Positions 1,409-54,455 of a stretch of 64,000 nt of DNA are shown piece by piece. The position numbers were made by a program, and so were the translations under genes. The notes under the pieces were generated by a model. The model ran no database searches, was not told the origin of the DNA, and was given only the letters and a program-made list of their open reading frames with translations. Position 1 is the first letter of the stretch. Each line of letters opens with the position of its first letter. The stretch is from Eledone cirrhosa (lineage: Eukaryota): NCBI GenBank assembly GCA_964016885.1, contig OZ024743.1, forward strand, positions 337,404,001-337,468,000, written 5' to 3'.

Positions 1409-3392
1409 TTCTTCTGGTTTTATAATTTCACAAAGTTTTACCAATAGAGAGAGAGTCGGTTTCTAACATAGACACAAGACTCTCTCATTGGAATTTACAC
1501 AACATCAACTAGGTAGATATGTATGTATGTCTGCATGCATGCACGTGTAGATATGGATGTTATTGTATGTGTGGATGTGTATGTTTTGAGTTGTATGTGT
1601 GCATGTGTATATGCTTTGTATCTGTACATGTGTATATGCAGTTATGAGATGCAACATTTTTGGAATGTTTTACATATTTTTACTGTTCCATTAATGGATT
1701 GTACTTGTAATTTCCTAACTAGTTGTGTTCTTTCTGTTCCTGTGAAGCCTAGCTTCTCAAGATTTGTATTGAGGCAGTTACTAACATATCCCAGTGCCCC
1801 AATAATCACAGGCATAAATCTGAAGGTGTAATCAGGGTGGAGTATCTGCAGATTTCTCATCAGTTCTGCATAAATATTCTCCTTTTCACTAATCCTTGAT
1901 ATTATATTGGCATCTGCTGGGCAGCTAATTTCCACTACTGTGCATGTTTTCTTCTCCCTGTCCCATATCATAATATCTGGTCTGTTATGCCTGCATTTTA
2001 TTGGGGTTTTTACTGGAACATTCCACCACTACTCTTTCATATTATGTACATGGATGTCTTCCACATTGTTGTAGCTTTTAATGTGTTTATTATCGGGGCT
2101 ATCGTTTTTACGAACTGCATTGTACAGTGTTTTGGCCACTACATCATGCCTCATAGGTAGATAGTACCGCGATGACATCTTTGGGCAGCTGCTGATGACA
2201 TGGGTGATATCCTCGATGTTAGTTCTGCAGAGTCTGCACTTGTTATCACATCTAGGTGTTTTGCCTGCATCCCTATCTCTTTTGTGAATCAGGTATTTCG
2301 TGCTAATCTCCTGTTCTTGGATTGCAAAAGCGTATCCTTCAAAGTGGGAGCCAATATAGCGGTTATTGGTCCAAGATAGACTACTTTCCTTATCTATATT
2401 ACTCTCACTCTGGAGCTTCCTGGCAACATATCCATGCATGATTTTTTGCTGATAGGCATGCAGTTTTTCATCCATGGATTCACTGCGATACTGCTGAGCG
2501 ACATCCCTGGGTGTGAGTTTTTGATTATCACACAGGGAATATCTCTCAAGGAGTTCCTTCCCAACTCTTATGATCTTATCTGTTTCATGCAGATAGACTT
2601 GCTCGAGAAGCGGGCTTCTACGTTTCGAGGTTCGTAGATGTTGTCGGAGAGATATGATGCGACATTCAAATGTTGTCTGGACTGATGTTAGGCCTCTGCC
2701 TCCCTGCTTACGTTTCAAGTAAAGGCGGTCTATGTCACTGTTGATGTGGAAGTTTCCGGTGTTGTTCAGTATTTTTCGAGTTCCAACATCAACTGCTCGG
2801 ATTTCGTCTATCGTCCAATTGAGTATTCCAAACGTTGGTGTTAGGACAGGCACAGCAAACACATTGTGAGCCACTGTTTTGTTTTGCGCAGAGAGTTCCG
2901 ATGACCAGATCTTTCTTAATCGGGTGTAGTATTCCCTGGTTACGCGTTCTTTATTACAGATACCATTATAGAATATGTTCTCATCTATCCCCAGGTATCT
3001 GTAGCAGTCCTCATCAGATATCGGTGAAACAGTTAGACCATTGATGACAATGTTGCTAGATTGGGTTGTTATTTTACCCCGCTTTACAGTCATGTATGAG
3101 CATTTATCTTGGCCAAACTCCATTCCTATATCCTTTGAGAACGTTGTAACCAGGTCAAGATTTTTCTTCATCCCATCCATGTTCTTGGCATAGAGTTTCA
3201 GATCGTCCACAAAGACGTTATGGGTTAGGTTCGTATTTCTGTCCTCCTGTGAGCCAATGATGTATCCCTCACATTTCTTGAGCAGAAAGGACAAGGGGTT
3301 TAATGACAAGATGAACAATATCACAGAGAGACTGTCCCCCTGAAATATACCCCTGCAATATTTTATTTTATCAGTGAAAATAGAGTCCTCTA
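1409..3392 (-). mobile_element. 5'-truncated R4/Dong-clade retrotransposon (RT C-half, CCHC finger, restriction-like endonuclease, 3'UTR) in a (CATA)n microsatellite
   Basis: ORFs 2029-3324 (FVDDLKLY; CRLC...HVISSC) and 1642-1971 (preceded by RPDI; VEISCP) are separated by one stop codon. The 3'UTR ends in (CATA)n, and (TATG)n lies on both flanks. Confidence 0.93.
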
Positions 3393-3398
3393 TTTATG

Positions 3399-10398: not shown

Positions 10399-13300
10399 AT
10401 GACCTCACTCAGAATAGGCAGCATAAATGCGCGTGGCTTGGGGTCGTCATGGAAGCAGGGCCACCTGCTCAACGACCTCAGGTCACTAAACATAGATGTA
10501 GTGGCCATCAGCGAGACCAGAATCTCCGAAGCACGGGCCTTCGCACCGATCTTCGGCGGCTACGATGTGTACGCATCTCCCAGCCGTCCGGGATCGGGGG
10601 CAGGAGTTGCTGTGCTTTTTCGGAGAGGTTTGGATCTCGCCATACGGGCGATCTTCCTGGACCGAGAAGGTAAGTTGGTGGTGCTAGACGTGACCAGCGG
10701 AGACGGGCAAACTTTCAGGCTAGTGGCCGTCTATGCCCCGACAGGAGCAGGACGGCTTGATTTCTTCCGGCGTCTGGAGACCTTTCTTGGAACGTCCCGC
10801 TCTCTTTAGTGTTAGTGGGCGACTGGAACGGGATCTTAGATGCACGCTGGGACTGTGTGGGATTAGCGGATAGGGGAGGAGGGTGCAAGAGCCTCACCAA
10901 CCTGCTCAGGCGTTTTGAACTGTCTGACAGGTACCGATTGGATTTCCCGAATGTGCCAATGTGGACTTGGACAAATCGCATAGGGTCATCCAGATCATAT
11001 CTAGATAGAGTATTTTGTAGAGAAATAGATAGGTCTAGCATAGGCTGTCCATAATTCAAGATAGTCAGCTACACGGACCACAAATTCGTGATCTGTGTGC
11101 TTGACTTAGATAGGCTTCATAGACGAGGACCCGGCGACTGGAAGTTAAACGCGTACTTACCAGCGCGCAAGGCCTACAGAGACCGGATTAGCGAACTAGT
11201 TAAGCGGGCGTTGACGGAGGCCATCGTCAACAACAAGTGGTGGTTTGCTCTGAAAAGAGCCATTAGAATAGAGTTCATTAGGTTTAGTAAGGCTTTAGCA
11301 ATAGAGAAAAATAGAGCAGAGGGAGAATTAGTTAGAAAATTAGACGAGGCGCTTAGCAAAGGCATCGCGACCGACGTACTTGCGGCGAAATTGGCCCTTG
11401 ACCAATTCTTCAATGCAAAGCACGAAGGCTGCGTTGTCACAGCTAGGGTGAGTGCTCTTCTCAGACACGAGGGGACGAAAGCCGTTCAATGGGCCCGAGT
11501 GGCGGAGGCACGTCGTGGCAAAAAAGCCACGATCCAGTCTTTGGTGGACCACGACGGGCGCATGCTACTCGATCCCGGGAAAATGTGTGAAGCTTTTCAG
11601 CGACACTTCGCTCAGTTGTTCGGGGGCAGCGGCGGGCCGGATCGAGGGATGAACTTTAGTGTCTACCTCAACGGACTGCCGCGGCTCTCGGCCACTGAGG
11701 CGGAGTGTTGCGAAAAGCCGATAACAGCCGCTGAAGTACGGGAGGAAATGACTAGCTGCACAAAGGGTAAATCGCCTGGTTTGGATGGTCTGCCCTATGA
11801 ACTTTACGTACAGATGCCAGACTTGTTCGGAGGCCTCGGCGGACGTCTACTGCAACTGGAAACAGAACGGGAGAATTCCCAGCTCTGTGAGCCGAGGAGC
11901 TGTGAGGCTGCTGAGAAAGGATCCGAACAAGGGGGATAACATAGATAATTTTAGGCCCATAACACTGCTAAACACAGAGTTCAAGATTTTGGCCAAGGTG
12001 CTAGCAAAGAGGTTGGCGCTTGTCGTTGGTGGTCTGGTGGGAGAGGCGCAGACATGCGCCATTCCCGACAGATCCATCCACGACAACCTCCACCTCATGC
12101 GATACATCGTAGAGAGGGTAGCTAGGGAACCTGGCACGGGTGGGTCCTTGATCAATTTAGATCAGTCGAAAGCTTTCGATAGGGTCGACCATCGTTACCT
12201 AGCGGCAGTCCTGAGGGCGGCTGGCTTTGGGCCCGTCTTCAGAGGCTGGATCGCTGCCATACACAGCGACATCTGCTCTGTGGTGAGAGTGAACGGTCAC
12301 CTTTCGGAACCGTTCAACATCGTGCGCTCGGTCCTCCAAGGATGTCCCCTCTCGTCCCTCTTGTACGTATTGACTCTCGAGCCATTACTGCACAAACTGG
12401 AGACGTTGAGGGGGGTCCCGCGCGAACTAGGATGCGGAAGATCCGTGTCAACATATGCGAACGATGTCACCGTAGTGGTGTCGAACGCCAAACACATCGA
12501 GGCGATCGGCACTACACCAAGAGAATACGAAGCGGTGACAGGAGCAATGATCAACCAGGAAATGTCAGTGGGCCTGCAGCTCGGCACCTGGAGAGGCAGG
12601 TCCATGCCGTCCAACAGCGTCGTCGGGCGCTGGACGGACGGACCAGTTAAATTGCTCGGGGTCTGGTTCGGTCCGGATCTCCAGACGGACAAAAACTGGG
12701 ACGAGGTGACGAGCAGGGTGGCTTCTCTCACCCAGAAATGGGGCGAGAGGAAGCTATCCCTGAAAGGTCGAGCGGAGGTGGCTAACGCGTATATCGCGTC
12801 CGTCATCTACTACCGCCTGACCGTCGTACCTTGTCCTAAGCCCCGCCTGACTGCGCTGGAGCGTTTGCTCTTTCGCTTTTTGTGGAAGGGACGCGCTCCG
12901 ATGGTCAGGCGGTCTATCTGCTGTCAACACCCGCTACGTGGAGGGCTGGGAATTCCGTGGCTGATGATGCGCAGACACGCGCTCAGGCTACGACATCTCC
13001 ACCTCTTCCTCGACGGTGATCAGGTGTGGTCTCCGTTTGCTAGACACGTCTTTCCCCAGCTCGTCTCCTTGACGGAGCTGCAGTCCTGGGTCAAGCGAAG
13101 ACCGAGAGGGAGCGCTTGGAGACTGGAATGTCTTTAGGCGCTCACAGCCCTCGACCAATTGGGCAATGTGATCGGTTGAAACTCCACCTTGGCGTTCTAT
13201 AGAGGATTAGTGGAGGGGAAGAGCGACGACGTACTTGGGGAAACTCTAGGCGTCGACGAAAATCAACTAGCCAATCTCTTCGGAAGAACTTTCGGGCCGG

Positions 13301-14289: not shown

Positions 14290-14489
14290 CGAAGGAAATG
14301 TGGTAAGGAACCAGGTGGACCATAACGCACCAAAGTACTCAATACTTGAGGTAGTAGAGTGGGTAATAGGAACCAGTAAGACCCCGACAGCTGAGCTCAA
14401 GCCGTTTCGACGGCTAATTCTGGACTCAGCTAGTCCAGAATTAGCCGTCGAAACGGCTTGAGCTCAGCTGTCGGGGTCTTACTGGTTCC
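14287..14489. mobile_element. PLE pLTR fold-back mini-insert (family of 23255-27226) in (TA)n
   Basis: Reverse complement of the pLTR 3' end, a 5-nt spacer (14427-14431), then a forward arm AGTCCAGAATT...GTTCC followed by TA. Confidence 0.9.
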
Positions 14490-14762
14490 TATATATATAT
14501 ATATATATATATACAAAATTAAATTAAGGGTATCATGTCCGAGATATGCGCCATATCCACCGTAGAATATGCTCAAAGATTCCAATGAATAGATCCGATC
14601 ATTTTATATCAACTAGAAATTGATTGACCTATATATATATATCTAAAATAAACACATGAAACAATCACAGGAGGTAATTTGTAAAGTGTGTAATCACACA
14701 GAGCTAGGTAGGTAATTAATTAAAGTTTAACTAGAACTTCAATATATATATATATACATACA

Positions 14763-15808: not shown

Positions 15809-18800
15809 GATATTAACAAATAGAAACTATATTTATAAAACCATATTTATTTCATTATACATATTTCAAGGACACCAAGTTAAATTATGGTGTGCTTTCA
15901 TCAGATAAAATATAATATAGATCAGTTTTATAAATAAATATTGAGATACCCTTAAAAAATGCAACCATTACTGTTGGAAGCTCCCGGATAGTGGAGTTGT
16001 TTAATTATATTATTATTAGTATTGGATATTTTTAGTTTTAAAATAAGCCGTTGGGTTACAGAGAAAGAAAAAGATAAAGAAGGAGAAAGAGAAAAAGAGA
16101 GAGAGAAAGAAAAGAGAGAGAGATAGCAGAACAACAGAGAGAAAAGAGAGAGAGAGAGAGAGAGAGAGGAGAAAGAGAAAGGAGAGAGAGCGAAAACTCT
16201 AAGTCTTATCTTGTTGAGTTATCTTAACATTTGAGATGAAATGAATAAATAAAATTAGAAATGTTAATAATCATGAATGGAAGATACATATATAATATGA
16301 GAAATTTAACCATTGTTTAAATATGATTAAATATTTAGTTAATCAGTTAAAATATTGAGATCAATACATTAAAAATTGAGATCTATATAATAAGAAATCT
16401 ATATATTATTATTAAGACTATATTATTAAAAATCTATATATTATATAACACATATACACACGCAAAAATACATACATATAAATATATATTCACACGTATA
16501 AAAATATATATACATATCTAACTACGTATATAATATATACATATAAAATATAAAGGATTTTTTAATTTGCGATATAAGAATCTTATAAAATCAGGGAAAA
16601 TCATTTCAATGTAATATCAAAGCAGCGTGAAGGAAAATTACGTTATTTAGTTATATAAATGTTACAATTGTTAAGATATTAAAGGAAATTTTATGTTATA
16701 CACACTTTATGTTATTAAACAAATGTTTTTTATATAAGTTTTATAAGATTACCTGTTATGTAGTTATGACTGTTATTAAGTGCAATCGAATTGTATGCAT
16801 ATACACATATATATACATACACAATTCCCACATATACATACATATATGTGTGTACCCACACAAATAGGTAGATATGCATCACATATATATATACATACAG
16901 ATAGACATACACGCATAAAACATATGTACATGTATATCAATACACACATACATATATATATACACACATATAGAGAGAGAAAAGTATATATAAATACAGT
17001 ACATAGTATAATTGAAGTACATAAAATACAAAAGAATTATATTACGATTTGGAAATATAATTATAAGCAATATAACTTTAAAACAATATAACTTAAAAAA
17101 TATTATAGAATATTTCAAGTTATAATTTCAAAATAATATGTTTAATAAATTTAGTATAAAAATTTTCTACGTATATTTAACTTAATTTTATATCCATAAG
17201 AGAAAGAAAAAGAAACTTTCAAAAGATAAACTTTCGAAAATAGGAGAAACTATCAAAAAATATTTTCCCCTTTTAAGAGCTTTCAGTATATTTCTCTAGA
17301 AGAGTTTATTATATTTATTTATATTTAGGAAGAACAGTTTTTTTTTACTTGTGTGTATAAGCAGTCAAAAAATGAAGGAATCTAATGATTTATCGATAGG
17401 TTCTATATGTTAATAGAATTAATTAATTAATTATATTTTAAATTTATATTTAAGCGTTGAGTTTCAATCTATGTCTACAGCAACTAAATAAATTGTTCCT
17501 TAGGTTCAGGGAATTTTTGGTCTTTAATATAAAGAATATTTCCTCTATACAAAGATCACAATTTTCTGAAGAGGAGTTAAAAGGAGTAGCTTTTGAAATA
17601 ATATTCCAAATCAACGAATATTCAACGTTCTTTAGTTTGAAGTCCCCATAATAAGCTAGATAGAGAAGTTGAAGATTTTTTGTTTGGATCTGTAAAAGAA
17701 TTTTTTATGATTATTGAAGCGGGATTTAAAACTCTGTGGAAGTGGATCCCACATAATTAAATGAATTTAAATTAGTTTTTTACATTACAATTATATACTA
17801 TATTTTTAGCTAAGCAATTGAGATTTATTTCTACAGTTACATTTATCAAATTGGATATTGCTTGGGTTATTAGTGGTATTTTGGTTAGGTTTTAAATTTC
17901 TATTATTAATTCTATTAATATTTTGCGCTAAGTTTTTGGTGGAAGAATAAGTTAATTTTTATAGTATGTCTATTAAAGATTGAATAATATCTATGTGTTT
18001 CTAGGGAAGCATTTGTCAAGAGCTTTAAAAAATAGTTTAGCAATAGGGATTTTAATATTTAATGAGAAAGGAGGAGCGAACCATAATATGTTCCTAGTTC
18101 TATTTCTTTTTTTTGTTTTCGGAATCATTGTAAGGTATTATAGTTGTTAAAATTGTTTAAAATAGTTAAAATTGTTACGATTATGGTTAGTTGTTATATT
18201 ATTATTATCAATGTATTTAATTTTATTTCTATACCCAGCTCTACCTAACGCTTCGTTGTAATAATGTGCTTTATCATCAAATATATTCTTATTAGCTGAA
18301 ATTCTCGAAATTCGTTCCTGTACAGAATTCACTATAGTATTTTTAACGGATCTGGGGTGATTAGAGTTAAAATTGACGTAGTTTAAGTTCTCATTTAGTT
18401 TGTGAAATGGATAATGAAGACATGTGTTAAGATTTAGTGTTACATCTAGAAAGTTAACTATTTTATGGTTATTCTCTATTTCTACTTTTAGATTAAGGTA
18501 ATTAAAAAATTGTATAATTTGTTTTCTTTTTCTATTTAGTTCACAGTTATTATTTTCTATAAGTAAAAACATGTCGTCACGATATAAACCTCCGGTTATC
18601 TCAGGAATTTTCCTATGTAGAGAATTATTTATAAAGAGGCCCACAAGATCCGTTACCTGAGCGGAATCGGATGATCCCATAGTTATATCGAAGTTATTAT
18701 TTCTATCTGCCCTAGTCCAGAGTTGGTTATTAAATTCTATTAATGTTTTCCGTGCCGATAATATAATGTGCATTTCATTGCTAGTTAAGTCTGTATGTTT

Positions 18801-20180: not shown

Positions 20181-20348
20181 CCAGCGAATTTTCAACCGTC
20201 AAGGTTGTTTTCCATGGTTATGTCACTATTTATAAAACAAATTTTGTATTTTATCTGATGAAAGCGCACCAAGGTTGGCTTGGTCGCCCTTGAAATATAT
20301 ATAATAAAATAATTATGGTTTTATAAATATAGTTCCCATTTATTAATA

Positions 20349-21344: not shown

Positions 21345-21893
21345 TGTGAATGAAGAATGGCGTGCTGCGTTGTTGCGAACATGAACATATGAATAAAAAT
21401 AGACCAAGAGATAAAATGTCCTCATCAGTAGTCTGACGTTATTGTTGGTATTTCGACGCATTAAAGACTAGATACCTAAAATCAGTGCGAGCGAAAACTC
21501 AATTAAGTTATCGGGACAGTGGGAAAACAGAGGGAAGGAAACAATCACATGGTAGTAATGCAACGTAAAGAGAGGAAAATAGAGACAAGTCAATGAATCC
21601 TGTGGGCTTAAGTCCGACAAATCAAATTGACGAGAAGAAATAGACACGCCCGAGCCGCGAGAAGATTGAGAGGGGAAAGAAATTCAAGCAGGTCAGACGG
21701 GAGGAAGTGAGAGAGGGGAGAAGCAGAGAGGGGGTGAGTGAAAGTGTGAGGAAGGGGCAGCCGGGAGTGAGTGACCAGAAGCGGGAGTTGAGGAAGGCAA
21801 GAGGTGAAGGAGAGAGAAAAGGTGATAGCAGTAAGGTGACAGAAAAAATACGAACCACAGCGAAGGGAAAAAAATATGTGAATGAAGAATGGC

Positions 21894-21895
<2 letters not shown>
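21345..21895 (-). mobile_element. ORF-less 532-bp element with 19-bp terminal redundancy carrying a permuted hammerhead
   Basis: TGTGAATGAAGAATGGCGT at 21345-21363 and 21877-21895; microsatellites on both flanks. Confidence 0.65.
21415..21476 (-). ncRNA. Non-circularly permuted hammerhead ribozyme candidate
   Basis: Minus strand: GGUAU C UAGUCU uuaaugc GUC GAA AUACC aacaauaacguc AGACUA CUGAUGA G GAC. The full core and all three helices are present in non-standard order. Confidence 0.72.
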
Positions 21896-21973
<78 letters not shown>

Positions 21974-21976
<3 letters not shown>

Positions 21977-22084
21977 AAAAGAGTCAGGATCCCGACGGTC
22001 GGCTGAGCTCCGGCCGTTTCGACAGCTAGATCCAAACTAAGTCACCAGTTATGGTCCACCTGCTATTTTACCACACCCTTTTTG

Positions 22085-23542: not shown

Positions 23543-23636
23543 ACCCCTTGATAAGCTCGGCTATTTAAATACCAGAATAAATTTTCATTCAGTCCAGAAT
23601 TAGCCGTCGAAACGGCTTGAGCTCAGCCGTCGGGGT
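23543..23636 (+). ncRNA. Type I hammerhead, U3-A8 core variant (5' pLTR)
   Basis: ACCCC TTGATAA G..CGGCTA/TAGCCG.C GAA ACGGCT..AGCCGT C GGGGT; predicted cleavage after 23631. Confidence 0.8.
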
Positions 23637-23821
23637 CTTACTTGTTCCTATTACCCACTCTACTACCCTAAGTATTGAGTACTTTGGTGCGTTATTGTCC
23701 ACCTGTTTCTTTACCACTTTTCCTTCGTTATCTAGCTCCTATCCCCGTAGTAGAACACTTTCCGACCCTACCACGCCGTATCCAGACTTTTCCGCTAAGC
23801 TCAATTTCTTTCACCCGCACC

Positions 23822-25960
23822 ATGCGAAAACACAACATCGACTTCTCTACCAAGAACATCCCAATCCCACCGAAAAAACTTTACCTTCGGATGCTCACGC
23901 AAAAAATCGATCTATTTGCGAAAAGACTTAGATGGAGAACTTTTTTCTACGACAGCTATTGCGACAATCAGGACTTCGGTACCAAGGAGAGATTCGGATT
24001 TATTACCTACAAATCTCCCCCCCCCGAACCATTTGCTCTCACCCTTCGAGAATGACCTCTTCCAACTGGTCAAGAACCTTAAATTCAAACCCAGACACAA
24101 CCGATTCCTACAAAAACTCCGTAGCAACTTAACAGAGTATGATAACACCAATGACATCATGGTGCATTCGGATAAAACTGGGAACCTATACTTTGTCAAC
24201 CCCGACAGATACCACACACTGATCAGGAGCAGTCTAAACTGCACCTATAAAAAGGCTAACCACTCATGCATCGAGGAAATTAATCGAGATGGACAACAAA
24301 TTACCTCCAGCCTCAGGGTCGCCGACCGCACCGAACCCCTAGACCCACGGACACCCTACTTCACACTGAAGGACCACAAATCCGATTTCGACCGTAAACC
24401 TTCTATCAGGCTTATAAACCCAACGAAGTCCGACATAGGGAGAATCAGCAAAAAAATCCTAGACCGCGTGATACCAAAAGTCAAGCAACACGCCCGACTT
24501 AGCCTATGGATCAACACCCAGGAAGTTATCTCATGGTTCAGCAATATGGAGGATAAACGAGACACTAAATTTATCCAGTTCGACATAGAGAGCTACTATG
24601 CTTCAATCACCTTACCGCTACTTACTGCCGCCTTGGACTTCGCCGAAGCACTTGTGCCCATCACCGACCAGGAAAGAAAAATCCTCCTCCACGCCAGGAA
24701 GACAGTCTTACTCTTTGATAACTCCAAATGGATAAAAAGAGCTCCCGACTCACCCTTCGACGTCAGCATGGGCGCGTCGGATTCGGCGGAGGTCACAGAT
24801 CTTATAGGATTATTCCTTATAGCCAAACTCACCGATATGTTTCCTGCTTTCGGTGGTGGATTGTACCGTGATGATGGGCTCCTTACCCATAAAGGGTACA
24901 ACCCCAGTAGTACAGATCGGGTCCGTAAACAATTAATCAGCTTCTTCCGCGACTGGGGATTTAAAATAACCCTACAAATGTCCCTGACCCAAATTAATTT
25001 CCTGGACGTTACCCTTGATCTCAATAATGACCTGTACTACCCATACAGGAAACCCAATGACAACCTGCACTACATCCACCGCCGATCTAACCATCCTAGG
25101 AACATCACCAACACCCTGGTCAAAAACATCTCCCTCCGCATATCCCGTTTGTCAGCTAATGAGAAGATATTCGATGAACATGCGCCTTACTACAACCAGG
25201 CCCTCAAGCGGAGTGGTTTCCGGGAGGAAATATCCTACTGTCCAGCTCCCATTAGCGGAACCAGCAGGCGACACCGCCGCTCACGCAATGTAACATGGTT
25301 CAATCCTCCCCACAACGCCGAGGTGACAACTCCCATCGGGAAAATTTTCTTTAGGCTCATTGAAAAACACTTCCCACTACAACACCGCTACCACAACATA
25401 ATTAACAAAAATACCATCAAACTCTCTTACAGCACTACACCTAACTTCGCACAAAACATCGTTTCCCCCAACAACAAAAAACTCAACCCCGATGGAAGAA
25501 ACAACCTAAATAGCAGTGGAGAGCCGACCAGGAGGTGCAACTGTCCTGATAGATCCAGTTGCCCCCTCGACAACAGATGCAGAGACCGTAATGTGATCTA
25601 CCAGTGCAACGTGAGCACGGACACCTCCAACAAAGCTTATATAGGATTAACCGCATGTGACTTCAAGACCCGGCTATACCAACACCGACATACCTTCCGA
25701 AATCCGACCCGGCGTCACGCCACTACACTTTCGGGCCACATATGAGACCTCAAGGACAACAACATCAACTATGATCTCACTTGGAAATTACTGTCCAGAG
25801 CTAACTCTTACACGGGAGGACGCCGTCCGTGCAATTTATGCTCGGAGGAAACTTTACAAATGTTGTTTTCGACGGACTAACTCCTAAACAAGAAATATGA
25901 ACTGGTTACTGCATGTAAACACCGATTACGTAGGACTTACCTCGCCCTCAAACCCCATAA
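23822..25960 (+). pseudogene. PLE RT and GIY-YIG endonuclease polyprotein
   Basis: MRKHNIDFSTKNIP start; frameshift in the poly-C at ~24020; DKTGN, FDIESYY, GLYRDDGL, CNC..C..C, VIY..AYIGLT; late stops. Confidence 0.93.
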
Positions 25961-36384: not shown

Positions 36385-36710
36385 ATACTTTGGGAGGGTC
36401 ATGTTGCCAATAAGAAACACACGCACCAGTTGCTTTCACTTCAATTTATTATAATAAATTTATAAATTTAGGAATTTATAAATTTCCGGTTGGTTGGTTG
36501 GTTGGTTCCACAACCAGATAGTTGTTTATATATTGTCAAAGTTCTTTCGTCACACATTCTGTGACCTCTTCAGTGACTGGGGATTCTTTTCTTTATTTTT
36601 GTGCCTCTCCTTTGTTCTGTCCTACGCCATTTTGTTTCAAAGTAAAACAATATCGGTTTCAACACACGTTTTCAGATAAAGAATCTTGCTAAACAAATTC
36701 AGAAACGAAA
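36378..36710. mobile_element. pLTR mini-insert of the 37745 PLE family, HHR at 36535-36577 (-), inverted tail
   Basis: GTCA CTGAAGA G GTCAC..GTGAC GAAA GAAC TT TGAC. 36638-36710 is the reverse complement of 37745-37816. Confidence 0.85.
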
Positions 36711-37746: not shown

Positions 37747-40480
37747 CGTTTCTGAATTTGTTTTGCAAGATTCTTTATCTGAAAACGTGTGTTGAAACCG
37801 ATATTGTTATACTTTGGGAGGGTCATGTTGCCAATAAGAAACACACGCACCAAGTATTTCACTTCAATTTATTATAATAAATTTATAAATTTAGGAATTT
37901 ATAAATTTCCGGTTGCTTGGTTGGTTCCACAACCAGATGATTGTTTATATATTGTCAAAGTTCTTTCGTCACACATTCTGTGACCTCTTCAGTAACTGGG
38001 GATTCTTTTCTTTGTTTTTGTGCCTCTCCTTTGTTCTGTCCTACGCCATCTTGTTTTTGTGTGTGTGTTGTGTGTTTAGTTTGCGCATGTGTTACATCCG
38101 GGTGTCTGTGTGTGTTTATATTTGTTTATTTACATGTTACTGGTTGGTTGTTTGTTCTATGTGCGTGTGTGTTTTCATTTTGACCTTCATTGTAAGTTGT
38201 GATGCTGCTGTTCCACTCATGTTTTCTATTTAATTTTGGTTGGAGTTCATTTATGTTTATTGCCTCTGTGATTTGTCTAAACATTGCGTCTTTTCTGTGT
38301 GTAGATTCTATTTTTATTTCTATGTTCTCTAATTTACCCTTATGTTCTATTTTAGCATGTTGGTAGAGTTCAGATGATTCTTTACTGTCTTGAAGGTCTC
38401 GCCAGTGTTCATTTATCCGTTCCCCTACACTACGAGCTGTCTCACCTATGTACACTATATTTTTATCTCTACATTGTCCTTCAGTACATCTTAAGCTATA
38501 TACTACATTTCTAGTTTTACAGTTAATATGGGGGCTTAATTTACAGATTATACATTTCTTATCTATACAGGGAGGCCTTTGAAAAGGGTATGTATTGCTA
38601 ATAAGTGTTTTTATGGAGGTACCTGGTCTTTCTACTATCTTAATATTGAGTTTATGTTTATCTAGTGCCCTTCTAAATTTGTAAGCTAATTCACCTCTAG
38701 GGGTTGTATTGATGAACATTACACTCTGGTATTTATTGCTATCATACCATGAGTGTATTCTATTAGCCTTATTCCTAGTTCTTTCTATTCTATTCCCAAA
38801 TTTGCTCCTATACAAGGGGCAGGTCCCATTTGTGTCATTATTTACCATTTATTCCCACTTGGTTCTGGCTCCTCTATATACTCTGATTTTATCTCTCTGA
38901 TTGTAACCAGAGAACTGCGGTGGATGAAGTGTTGTATGTGTCTCTCTAGTTCTTCGGGGTTGCACATGCGGGACACGTTTCTCATCACCCGTACCAAATA
39001 CGCAATCAGTATGTTGATTTTGGTGTGATCCGAAACAGCTGAGTTTCGGTGGATCAGATATTTGGAAGTCATGGGTTTGGCATAATGGGAATGGAGGATT
39101 TGTTTTTTGTTATTAATGGTTTCTAACCAGAGCTCTGTGTCTAGTACAGGTAATCGATGGTTGGGGTGTTTGCTTGGGTAGCCTATAGTAACTCTAATAC
39201 TCTGGTGGATGGAGTTAGCTATTTGCTGGATGCTTTCCATTGTGTTTTTCTCTAATTCCTGACTGTTCTCTAGTTGGGTGTTTTAACTACGATGTTTATA
39301 TCATCAACGTAGCGGGAGTACATTATCAGGCTTAAGGGGTCTTCTAATTGTTCTTTAAGTATAAGTTTAAGTTTACTGTCCCACCATACCATGAATAGGT
39401 TAGCTATGTCGCCTGAAATGCTAACGCCAGTAGCTGCTCCCTCCTCTTGGGCATATGTTTTTCCATTAAATTTGAACATATGTTCCTTAAGGGTTAATTT
39501 TATGCTGGCCCCCACCGCATGTGCAATCATTTTCTTTAGTTCATCGTGGTTTTCGGGGGCCGTATGGCTCTGGTCCACCCGTTCCATCTATCTGTGTGGG
39601 TTTTCTTGGCCATTGAGGTAATGGTAGGTGGTCTGCCACTTGCTGGTCTTGTAGGGCACAGGTTGCTAAGGACATATGTATCCAGATAATTATTACTATA
39701 GGTAAGTTTAAGTAGGAGTCCCAGCTCACTGGTATCAATCCCACGGAATTCAACATTGCTCTCACTGATCATTTCTACGCATTTCTCCACAGCAAAATCC
39801 ACGACAAAAGATGGATACAGGGACACAACATCCATACTACCTATTATGCAGTTTGTTAGGTCCCTAGATCGGTTACTCTCGCCGATTCTGCTGAGGTCCT
39901 CCATGCTGTCACATATATCTGGGGACATTTCAATGATGGGGCATATGATCAGGGAGAGGAAGTATGAAAGTCTGTAGTTACTAGCAATGTTAGCTTCACA
40001 GACTGGCCGTGTTGGTGGTCCTGTGACAGGGTCACTGCTCGTTTTATGGTCTTTTCGAAGCCCATGCAACACTGGCACGTCATTGTTCCAGGCTTGGAAG
40101 TTGTTGGCAGTCCTTTTGTTGGGCTGCATTATATTTGTCCACATCATCATATGGGCATTGAGGCCTTTTTCCCTATCCTCATGCTCCTGTGGTGTTACCT
40201 CTCTTGTGTTAGTGATGTGGGGTTGCATTGCCTGGATGTAGTTTGGCAGACTGTCAACCGACATTCTGCCAGACTTGTCTGTTGGAAAGCATGCTATCTC
40301 TCCATTACACGAGCGCTGCATGAGCTTACGCAAGCCATTTGCAGATTTTGCTCCCAGTTGCTGGGCCTAGATTCTATTATGCTTCTTGCTATACTGTTCT
40401 ATAATATTTCTAAGTTTAGATCTAGCTATACTAAATTGTGCTTCTGTTTGTTCATCGACCTATGTTGTGTTGTATTGTAT
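37745..40480 (-). mobile_element. Penelope-like element (RT plus C-terminal GIY-YIG), frameshifted, HHR at 37954-37996
   Basis: DKSGR, SMDVVSLYPS, GAATG, YSRYVDDI, LPVLD, NVVY..VYIGETAR..R..EH. Confidence 0.92.
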
Positions 40481-42729: not shown

Positions 42730-45499
42730 ACAGACATGACCTCATTGCCAGAGTGTTGTGACTGAAACTGGCTAAACTCATGGCTTTAATCAAAGAGGGT
42801 CAGGTATTTGGAGCTGTAAAATGTGACATGTTCACCGTCGAATGGCAAAAACGAGGGCTGCCAAATGCTCACATTTTGATTTGGTTAGCTGATAAAATCA
42901 ATTCATAGACAGCTTCATTTCGGCTGAAATCCCTAACCCAGCAACTGACCAGGAATTACATGACATCATCAAAGCTAACAAGGTCCGTGTGCATCGGGTC
43001 CTAATGAGCATCACACGTGCCTGAAAGGGGAGTCGTGCAGTAAGGGATACTCCAAAAGATTTGTTGACCAGACTCAGACTGGTGGCGACGGGTACCCCCT
43101 GTACAGGCGGAGAGGGCCCGAGAACGGTGGCTTCACCACAACAGTAAAGGGAGGTCAAGTCGACAATAGAGGCATTTCAAGGCATTTCAAGCTGAAAATA
43201 GAAGGGACGAGGTCACAGAATACCTGGCGGGGTGGTACATCAGTAGCAATGAAGCTTTTTGGCGCCTATTTGGTTTACCCCTACACCAACGGCATCCCGC
43301 CATCGTACAGCTTGCGGTATATTTGGAAAATGGGCAAATGGTTTACTTTACGGACCAAACCGCCGCCAAGTTGGCCGCCGATCCGAAAGAGACCACTCTG
43401 ACGGGTTTCTTCAAACTTTGCCAGTTCGATACATTTGCGCAAACAATTGTGTACCCCCAGATTCCATCCTACTTTAGATGGTCGAAAAACACTTGGGTGC
43501 GAAGAAAGTCAAGTCAGGCTGTTGAAAGACATCCTGGTGTAAAAATTGACAGCTGCCTTGGAAGGGTTTACACTGTGCCCCCAAGTCAGCATGAGTGCTT
43601 TCATCTCCGCCTTCTTCTGCATGAAGTTGTAGGCCCACAAAGTTTTCAGGACCTCAAAACTGTTGATGGAGAAATATGTGATACGTACCGGGAAGCCTGC
43701 TTTAAGCGTGGTCTTTTGTAAGATGATTCGCAATGGGATTCCACTTTAGCAGAGGGTGCTTTGTTGAAATCACCTAAAGGTCTACGGTAACTCTTTGACA
43801 TTTTGCTTCAAAAGTGTGAATATGGGTCAAGTACAGGGACTTCATGTCTGAGGACTTCCTGCGCCTGGCTCCTTCAGTGTCCTTCAGTGGAAGTTGGTTA
43901 CATTACAGCGACATTATCTACAATAGGGCAATAAAGTACCAGTAATGCACTGGGTAATTGCTGGCCTTGTGCCTAAAGTAGAGACAATTATCTACAACAG
44001 GGCACTCATTGATATCGAGGACGCCCTCCTCGACATGGGTGGGAGTGAGTTGGCGACGTATGGCTTGCCGTCAACCGTCAGAGAGGAAGCTAACACGTTG
44101 GCCCCGGATTTGTTGCGGGAAACAACATATGACATCGAATCTCTTTCCCAATACTTAGAGGAAAATGAGCCCAAACTTCTGTCGGACCAAAGGTTGGCCT
44201 ATTTAACTATCATTGACGCGGTTCAAAATCAGACTGGGGGTATTTACATTCTCGATGCTCCTGGGGGTACCGGAAAAACTTTTGTAACAAAATTGATTCT
44301 CGCTAAGATTCGTCAGGAGAAAAAAATTGCGTTGGCCGTTGCATCGTCCGGGATCGCTGCTACTTTGCTGCCGGGAGGCAGGACAGCACATTCAACCTTT
44401 AAACTCCCCTTGGATTTAATAAAAACTGAGACACCAACATGCAATATCAGCAAGAGTTCACACGAAGTTCTGGTTCTCAAAAAATGTTGCCTCATTGTTT
44501 GGGATGAGTGCACAATGGCACACAAGGGTGCCCTTGAGGCATTGGACATGACCCTGAAAGACATTAGGGATTCTACAGCTCCTATGGGTGGCGTAACCCT
44601 TCTGCTATCAGGGGATTTTCGGCAAACGCTGCCTGTCATCCCCAAAGGGACAAGAGCTGAGGAAGTGCGTGCCTGCCTTAAGTCGTCCATGTTGTGGATC
44701 CAGGTGAAGAGTTTGTACCTGAGCACAAATATGCGTGCTCATTTGCATGGTGACAACATGTCTGCAGGATTTGCTCAGAATATTTTAGCACTTGGTGAGG
44801 GCAAGGTCTCTGCGGGTGACAAGAGTGGCATAGCAATTGACTCCCTGTGCAACATTGTGAGCAGCCCTTCTGACCTTTTGGAAGCAGTTTTTCCTAATGT
44901 CTCATCTAACTTTAAAAACCTCGATTGGCTCAGCGAAAGAGCCATCCTTGCTCCGAAAAATACCATGGATAATTTTATTAACGAGCAGCTGATTGAGAAG
45001 ATCCCCGGTAAAGAACACATCTTCAAATCTATCGACCAGACGTCAGACCCCGACGATATCGTTAATTATCCGGTTGAGTTATTAAATTCCCTTGAGCCTC
45101 CAGGGCTCCCACCTCACATTCTTAAGCTTAGGGTTGGCTGTCCCATTATGCTAATAAGGAACTTGCATCCACCAAAGCAGTGCAACGGTACTCGCATGGT
45201 CGTCAAGTCACTGACGCCCCACTTGATTGAGGTCACCATTGTAACGGGGTGCGGGAGAGGGGAGACTGTTTTCATTCCAAGGATGAACCTTTTCCCCTCG
45301 GCGTCAGATATCACGTTCGATTTCCGGCGATCCCAATTCCCGGTGAGACCATGTTTTGCCATGTCCATTCACAAGTCACAAGGGCAAACATTGTCGGTGG
45401 CGGGCATCCATTTGGGGAGCTATGCTTCTCCCATGGCCAACTTTTTGCTTACACTCCTCAAGGGATGACACGCAATATCGTCTACAAAGAGGTGCTATA
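42730..45499 (+). pseudogene. Helitron Rep/PIF1-family helicase
   Basis: VEWQKRGLPNAHILIWL (Rep motif 2, one His lost), DAPGGTGKT, WDECTM, GDFRQTLPV and AMSIHKSQGQT. Confidence 0.93.
43931..43986 (+). mobile_element. SINE 3' fragment inserted in the Helitron with 18-bp TSD
   Basis: ATTATCTACAA(T/C)AGGGCA at 43913-43930 and 43987-44004. Confidence 0.85.
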
Positions 45500-53722: not shown

Positions 53723-54455
53723 GGAAAAAATGAAACGAAATTTCATTTCCCACTCTTAGTACGGCTGTTACTTAAATATAAGTATGTATACGTACATACA
53801 TATATGTATACAGACGTACAGTAGTATGTATATATATATATATACATACATGCACATATATATATATATGTTATATATGTACGTATAGACTCACCGAACA
53901 TTTATTATAATGCTCGATGTGTTTGTAAACAAACATCCCGTATTAAGCCGTAGTGTCTAGCAACCATCGTTGCTCATTTGTTCAACACTGACAAAGGACC
54001 GCTGTACTAGTTTCAAGCTTATTAGCTATCGTCAGCAACGTATAGCTTCCTGCTAGATGGTTGAACGTCTGAAAGTATATACTTTCCTTATGCATATTAA
54101 CGGCTGAGCAGCCTAATTTGCATATCGAGTGAGTTAATCGGCCGGGGTACCGAAAACGATAAACGGAAAAAATGAAACGAAATTTCATTTCTCACTCTTA
54201 GTACGGCTGTTACTTAAATATAAGTATGTACACGTACATACATATATGTATACAGACGTACAGTAGTATGTATATATATATATACATACATGCACACATA
54301 TATATATGTACGTTGCTGACGATAGCTAATAAGCTTGAAACTAGTACAGCGTTCCTTTGTAAATTCAGGCTGTTCAGTTTGTTTACAAACGAACAAAGCG
54401 GGCGCTATAATAAGCGTCCGCTAAACTGATGCGTACATATATGTATGTGTACCTG

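Follow-up and report, generated by a model that had tools for sequence, protein, structure and literature searches.

A candidate non-circularly permuted hammerhead ribozyme in a non-coding Penelope-like repeat of Eledone cirrhosa

Results and Discussion

The insertion and its copies

The window, i.e., the whole stretch of 64,000 nucleotides analysed here, corresponds to positions 337,404,001 to 337,468,000 of contig OZ024743.1 in the Eledone cirrhosa assembly GCA_964016885.1. A Pfam scan took in 11 of the 39 open reading frames of the window and recognized RVT_1 reverse transcriptases at 2032-3393 (minus strand) and 11752-13134 (plus strand), as well as a PIF1-like helicase at 43927-45465 (plus strand, E 4.8e-64), which is possibly Helitron-derived. 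The insertion in focus occupies 21345-21894 on the minus strand within a (TA)n/(CA)n microsatellite. It consists of a 532-nt non-coding Penelope-like repeat unit, which belongs to a family designated F1, and, on its 5' side, a second copy of 18 nt from the 3' end. The element contains no open reading frame. The distance between the motif described below and the 3' terminus of the unit is approximately 110-130 nt.

F1 copies shared 89-95% identity, as judged from 40 scored out of 2681 first-look candidates in the 3.0 Gb genome, and the exact block consisting of GAAA plus the core was matched 125 times in the genome and not once by its control. The usual layout was a full unit following a 5'-truncated partial copy, at times inverted, and the copies ended at either of two 3' points about 40 nt apart. 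The traits of a non-autonomous Penelope-like element, namely 5'-truncated partial tandems, inversions, a tail and the lack of an open reading frame, were all present. Partial tandems, inversions and (TA)n targets appear as hallmarks of Penelope-like elements (PLEs) in the text of Craig et al. 2021 (PMC8557442). Related copies were present in the three sequencing runs examined, an observation with no bearing on expression.

Layout of the motif on the minus strand

An initial annotation of the window had pointed out a non-circularly permuted hammerhead at this place. Every base that it assigned was found where it had been placed, from 21476 to 21418 of the minus strand (with GTC at 21457-21455); stem I of 6 bp, stem III of 5 bp and stem II of 3 bp are complementary, and the core is intact. 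The element reaches about 15 nt further in the 5' direction than had been noted, to 21491. Read 5' to 3', it starts with a strand (strand a, 21486-21491) that can pair into stem II, followed by the 5' strand of an additional helix (21480-21485), a 3-nt strand predicted to be the non-bulged side of a k-turn (21477-21479, UUA in the window copy and UGA in other families), the stem III strand GGTAT ending in U16.1 (21472-21476), and C17 at 21471, which takes the H17 position. By analogy, the cut is predicted 3' of C17, between 21471 and 21470. The stem I strand TAGTCT (21465-21470) comes next, separated by a 4-nt linker from the 3' strand of stem II, UGCGUC (21455-21460). G12-A13-A14 (GAA, 21454-21452) and the stem III strand from A15.1 (ATACC, 21451-21447) follow as one stretch at 21447-21454. 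The predicted bulged strand of the k-turn, a 3-nt bulge followed by GA and U, lies at 21441-21446, with AA in the window copy where the family has GA. After the 3' strand of the extra helix (21435-21440) and, in the general layout, one further base, the element concludes with the 5' strand of stem I, AGACTA (21434-21429), and the core CTGATGA (21428-21422), together 21422-21434, and an extra G (21421) with GAC (21420-21418), together 21418-21421. The hammerhead core is thus present as C3-U4-G5-A6-N7-G8-A9, G12-A13-A14, A15.1-U16.1 and H17. The order of blocks is S-G-C, and not the CGS, GSC or SCG of types I, II and III.

The window copy retains the core and all three stems, and it is a slightly decayed member of a widespread family. 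Its linker of 12 nt, as described in the initial annotation, is correct for this copy but not for the family, in which the linker has 13-14 nt and from which the mutated linker of the window copy deviates privately; the family form was found in 18 + 8 of 39 intact copies. Owing to this private linker the k-turn signature is broken in the window copy, and only two of the six pairs of the extra helix are left. Since the extra helix and the predicted k-turn are mutated, the window copy would probably cut poorly. With a folding program that does not form pseudoknots, the best nested fold of the window copy buried the core in a 6-bp hairpin, and none of the six copies folded by such a program reached a z-score below -1.6.

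Related families and covariation

A relative of 70.7% identity, F2, was found beside an F1 copy by similarity over the whole element, and its core is intact. Further families were recovered by pattern searches. A search of the genome for copies and for covariation of the stems had been proposed along with the initial annotation. Two complementary patterns comprising the GAAA block, GAT and the core gave 1605 + 9127 = 10,732 genome matches, against 2 + 1 matches for their reversed controls. The window copy itself falls outside this pattern, having lost the G of GAT. The non-circularly permuted arrangement holds beyond the single copy, as relatives in S-G-C order keep both core and pairings.

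The alignment was built from ten natural copies, with each family or subfamily represented by a single copy chosen for intactness; it is free of gaps over 80 columns and leaves out the shorter F3 copies and two low-copy relatives (L066 and L139), which differ in length. Pairing was found in 93.9% of the 230 cells, a value reached by none of 500 shuffles, while slid controls gave 32-47%. Both sides had changed at 15 of the 23 pairs, where the ten families are interrelated and the counts do not represent independent events. Stem I was paired in 98.3% of the cells, with both-side changes at five of six pairs, and stem III in 100%, with both-side changes at two of five pairs. The extra helix, which extends stem III, was paired in 96.7% (five of six pairs changed on both sides), and stem II, when formed with the upstream strand a, in 81.7% (three of six). 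Most families were found with patterns that contain the core, and the invariance of the core is to that extent built in.

Several low-copy, divergent relatives (L234, L235, L236, L166, L167 and L172) match the pattern of GAAA, k-turn and core, while their upstream strands are decayed. These are possibly old 3' ends of Naiads.

How often such an arrangement arises by chance was estimated on dinucleotide shuffles of the window made after masking of the microsatellites. A strict descriptor of 6, 3 and 5 Watson-Crick pairs was matched once in the window and in none of 300 shuffles; a loose one was matched once in the window and six times in 300 shuffles. PLE copies are often rearranged, and F1 carries a GAC...GUC hairpin after the core, so that one may think of a chance arrangement, or of a broken type I hammerhead scrambled by truncation and inversion. 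That hairpin, however, is not followed by GAAA, more than 10,000 matches share the same order, and both-side changes occur in all four helices. A chance origin of the motif is excluded, and the reading as a scrambled type I hammerhead, which we regard as exceedingly improbable, is refuted by the shuffles, the genome matches and the covariation alike. An F1-like stem II pattern combined with a different stem III was also searched for and rejected; its 4 matches, against 11 in controls, represent chance or type I.

A scan of the window against Rfam returned 141 matches, none of them to a hammerhead and none at gathering score. That the motif is missed by standard models, as had been claimed, is correct as far as the absence of an Rfam hammerhead here is concerned, but the common minimal type I hammerheads of the window likewise went unrecognized by Rfam, so the miss at the motif does not discriminate.

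Stem II and the predicted k-turn

The 3-bp stem II of the initial annotation, formed with the GAC after the core, is complementary in the window copy. Across the ten families this pairing was present in only 36.7% of the cells, compared with 81.7% for the upstream strand, and the proposed extension by AUU/AAU is superseded by that covarying strand. The comparison of families shows that stem II would largely be built by a strand upstream of the predicted cut site. In families other than F1, strand a is the source of 5-6 bp of stem II, whereas in F1 four of its bases (21489-21486) pair with the outer four bases of UGCGUC (21460-21457), and the inner 2-3 bases of UGCGUC can pair with the bases after the core, a possibility confined to F1. 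Here the upstream strand is mismatched at the two innermost positions of stem II, exactly where the post-core bases pair, and stem II of F1 would consequently be composite, with the inner 2-3 bp from post-core bases and the outer 4 bp from upstream. For F2 and F7, only the upstream strand is able to pair into stem II; F2 had been considered as a family with a dead stem II, which was rejected when its upstream strand was found to pair. In many families, four separate strands seem to make up the catalytic core.

The innermost pair of stem II deserves separate mention. A G10.1-C11.1 pair is usual in hammerheads. It can be formed through post-core bases in the window copy and F1. Considering all ten families, a 10.1-11.1 pair was formed via the upstream strand in five, mostly not as G-C, and via the bases after the core in six. 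The G two bases past the core (21420 in the window, alignment column 77) was invariant in all ten families and is kept even where pairing with 11.1 is impossible, so a role in a tertiary contact is conceivable.

The loop between stem III and the extra helix carries a k-turn signature in all ten representatives, i.e., a 3-nt bulge followed by invariant GA. The opposite strand reads GA in six and UA in four of them, with the A invariant in all ten. From these bases the loop is predicted to be a k-turn. The A-U variant is reported to fold in Kt-23 (PMC2790904), and a k-turn to bend the axis to about 50 degrees (PMC5061560). Located between stem III and the extra helix, a k-turn would bend the RNA and fold the extra helix back. 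The far end of the extra helix could then meet the far ends of stem I, via one base, and of stem II, directly, and it would hold the two stems together as the contact between loops I and II does in ordinary hammerheads. Under this arrangement the chain ends would fall between A9 and position 10.1, which would make the fold a circular permutation of the type CSG form found in nematode Naiads.

Covariation is blind to whether pairs form within or between molecules, and the same pairings could be realized by domain swapping in a dimer, or from one tandem copy to another; the stem I/CUGAnGA strand of one chain would then be bound by the S-G hairpin of its partner. Dimers have been proposed for the minimal type I hammerheads of PLEs (text of PMC4209133), the copies are often in tandem, and the Naiads EuTe and Bfor have long, near-straight arms of stem III and extra helix with no k-turn, which would strain a monomer. 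Nevertheless, we consider a dimer unlikely, given that in the families of this genome the signature of the k-turn is invariant at the very hinge where a monomer requires it, that stem III has 5-13 bp and is no short palindrome, and that SGC and CSG RNAs with an equivalent helix cleave during transcription according to the text of Eckert et al. 2023 (PMC10085705). We prefer the single-chain fold, in which intact family members would form a pseudoknot by themselves.

Occurrence in Naiad elements

According to the main text of Craig et al. 2021 (PMC8557442), Naiads target (TA)n, have a tail of about 40 nt and form partial tandems with inversions; the same text reports no canonical hammerhead in Naiads, only marks named ‘HHR_core’ or ‘HHR_half_core’. 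By eye, the 3' end of the element resembles those of the published Naiad_Obim and Naiad_Ovul; membership in the Naiad clade would call for a 3' end in common with an element that encodes an N-terminal GIY-YIG and a reverse transcriptase. The 3' UTR of the octopus Naiad shares with F2 the k-turn loop and an exact upstream stretch of 12 nt, and has both ribozyme layout and flanking sequence in common with the window element. The published Naiads encode an open reading frame, unlike the window element. The non-coding repeat is likely derived from Naiad Penelope-like retrotransposons.

The same topology was seen by eye in 16 published Naiad consensi from six phyla, ten with the split form and six nematode ones with type CSG; these parses, including that of strand a, cover a minority of the 54 consensi in the supplement of Craig et al. 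The split S-G-C form occurs in Bfor (ctenophore), Amil, Aacu, Anas and 2_Movir (cnidarians), Plae (acanthocephalan) and EuTe (crustacean), and among cephalopods in Obim, Ovul and Esco, the last with four of five stem II pairs; stem I of Bfor has only 2 bp. For Bfor, the three Acropora records, 2_Movir and EuTe, pairing of the post-core bases with the stem II strand that adjoins GAA is impossible, and it is the upstream strand that provides G10.1-C11.1. Plae has the upstream G-C too, while its downstream bases are able to form an alternative, shifted helix. Type CSG was found in Parc, 2_Nbra, 3_Nbra, Hpol, Asuum and one record assigned to Hcon by position, and four of these six show the extra helix clearly. 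If the split form is closed on itself, 3' end to 5' end, the result is precisely the circle of type CSG. No motif was seen by eye in Ppla, Lpol, Ptep, Omin and Dcar, the last two being incomplete.

Remnants of Naiad open reading frames in the genome amounted to 3 pattern matches and 53 protein matches, most of the latter with stops, and had decayed much further than the non-coding copies. The motif was found downstream on the same strand in 0 of 3 and 0 of 20 remnants examined. An autonomous partner in the vicinity of the repeats was also considered and rejected: judged by eye, the open reading frames near 20 + 50 copies resembled those of Hydra, Neptune or LINE elements, and microsatellite lay in between. 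More than 10,000 fairly young non-coding copies thus stand against only decayed Naiad reading frames, and the mobilising partner is either missing or belongs to another PLE clade.

Relation to described hammerheads

Six block orders are defined in the text of Eckert et al. 2023 (PMC10085705), where SGC and CSG are validated in vitro and type SGC cleaves at 0.007-0.19 per min. The C-B-A order of the initial annotation is their type SGC, and the order itself was already known. Type SGC, with the HRIMA-1 motif and its variants, resembles the present element in the succession of cut-site block, GAAA block and CUGAnGA block, in the short linker from stem I to stem II, and in an extra helix which ties stems I and II and is sometimes joined directly to stem III. 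From that description we infer that our extra helix is equivalent to their ‘interaction’ helix between stems I and II. The difference lies in block C (stem I strand, CUGAnGA and stem II strand), which Eckert et al. assume to be unbroken: in the families described here, stem II is supplied entirely or for the most part by a strand that precedes the cut site, and the chain is open between A9 and 10.1. An unbroken block C fails in most of our families and holds only for the inner 2-3 bp in F1. The consulted text of Eckert et al. makes no mention of a k-turn, and ‘kink’ had no match in the supplement. Type CSG has the same circular topology, which the window form opens elsewhere; it is represented by two metagenomic sequences in Eckert et al., compared with the six nematode Naiad consensi here.

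The hammerheads described so far in PLEs are type I in the portions consulted of PMC4209133 and bioRxiv 2026.07.22.740005. In PLE pseudo-LTRs and non-LTR retrozymes, the minimal type I hammerheads likewise sit in PLE-type repeats with tandem non-coding units. The extra base after A9, which the initial annotation regarded as common to other PLE hammerheads, is indeed a further trait shared with them, and it is found also in the minimal type I family of the window. However, the order of those hammerheads is circular, their helix III is tiny, and dimers have been proposed as their active form (text of PMC4209133), whereas the window element has a non-circular order, a long stem III and the additional helix.

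The first account of non-circular RNA permutations dates from 2023 and drew on environmental sequence alone (Eckert et al., PMC10085705). As stated there, type SGC came from metatranscriptome RNAs only, and genomes of known organisms yielded none except for a weak bacterial GCS candidate; in its consulted part, PMC13725137 merely cites Eckert for other permutations. Among the titles, abstracts and passages searched, with subscription papers mostly outside the search, no report of non-circular hammerheads in PLEs, Naiads or animal genomes was found, and the split-core wiring is without precedent in that literature. We think it rather likely that Naiads across animal phyla carry overlooked, active non-circular hammerheads, mostly open between A9 and 10.1, and that these represent a seventh wiring, held by a k-turn in the families of this genome. 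If true, this would explain why Naiads seemed to lack hammerheads, and non-circular ribozymes would be abundant in animal genomes, with more than 10,000 copies in this one. Provided that these RNAs cut, they would be the first such ribozymes for animal genomes in the literature searched, and the statement that Naiads lack hammerheads, which the text of Craig et al. (PMC8557442) uses to argue that PLEs do not need them, would be overturned. A chain split between A9 and 10.1 contradicts the assumption of an indivisible CUGAnGA block; if the split form holds, current search descriptors overlook the whole class because they treat this block as indivisible. The nematode CSG form, the split form and the metatranscriptome SGC form represent one circle opened at different points. 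F1 has the look of an intermediate between permutations, and as such it would offer a testable route from one to another.

Predicted cleavage

It is probable, in our judgement, that the motif is a conserved pseudoknotted S-G-C fold in a repeat likely derived from Naiads, and that intact copies act as a single chain, predicted to cut after position 17. The likely job of such a ribozyme would be to cut tandem or read-through transcripts into RNAs of unit length, as proposed for other PLE hammerheads. A pile-up of 5' ends at the cut, first suspected by eye, was unsupported when measured: 5' ends of truncated copies lay within 4 nt of the cut in 1 of 91 F1 and 0 of 56 F5 copies. For a Poseidon PLE, uncut RNA is reported as the main template of insertion (text of PMC11167929); the absence of a pile-up fits this report and lends no support to activity.

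The missing pile-up, together with the non-canonical 10.1-11.1 pairing of many families, would also suit a fold that is real but mostly non-catalytic, being recognised as a structure by the retrotransposon protein, or one that cuts only once protein is bound. The Poseidon hammerhead itself, as described in the same source (PMC11167929), cut only with protein and was dispensable for insertion in vitro. We find such a role quite improbable. The bases of the core are kept while the stems turn over, position 17 is G in only 1 of 157 distinct copies, and N7 varies freely, a pattern expected of selection on cleavage; moreover, the core is retained in Naiads from ctenophores to molluscs.

Other hammerhead cores in the window

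One family of minimal type I hammerheads, in which A9 is followed by an extra base and which Rfam missed throughout, has members at 15904, 27996 and 41562 on the minus strand and at 20255 and 41991 on the plus strand. A second type I family is present at 36573 and 37992 (minus strand) and 40524 (plus strand), flanking a PLE open reading frame at 38129-38848 (minus strand) with a weak C-terminal match to GIY-YIG; the same arrangement was seen at another locus, L062. A third repeat with a type I-like core lies at 54035 on the minus strand and at 54316, 54764 and 55278 on the plus strand, in tandem at about 514 nt. Finally, a repeat that is common next to (TA)n and often forms inverted pairs occurs at 14290-14490, 21970-22030 and 23590-23680, as well as at loci L188 and L191. 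It contains a conserved GC-rich hairpin around GAAA, with no CUGAnGA nearby, and its copy near 23600 precedes an open reading frame of 648 aa (23799-25742) that had no Pfam match.
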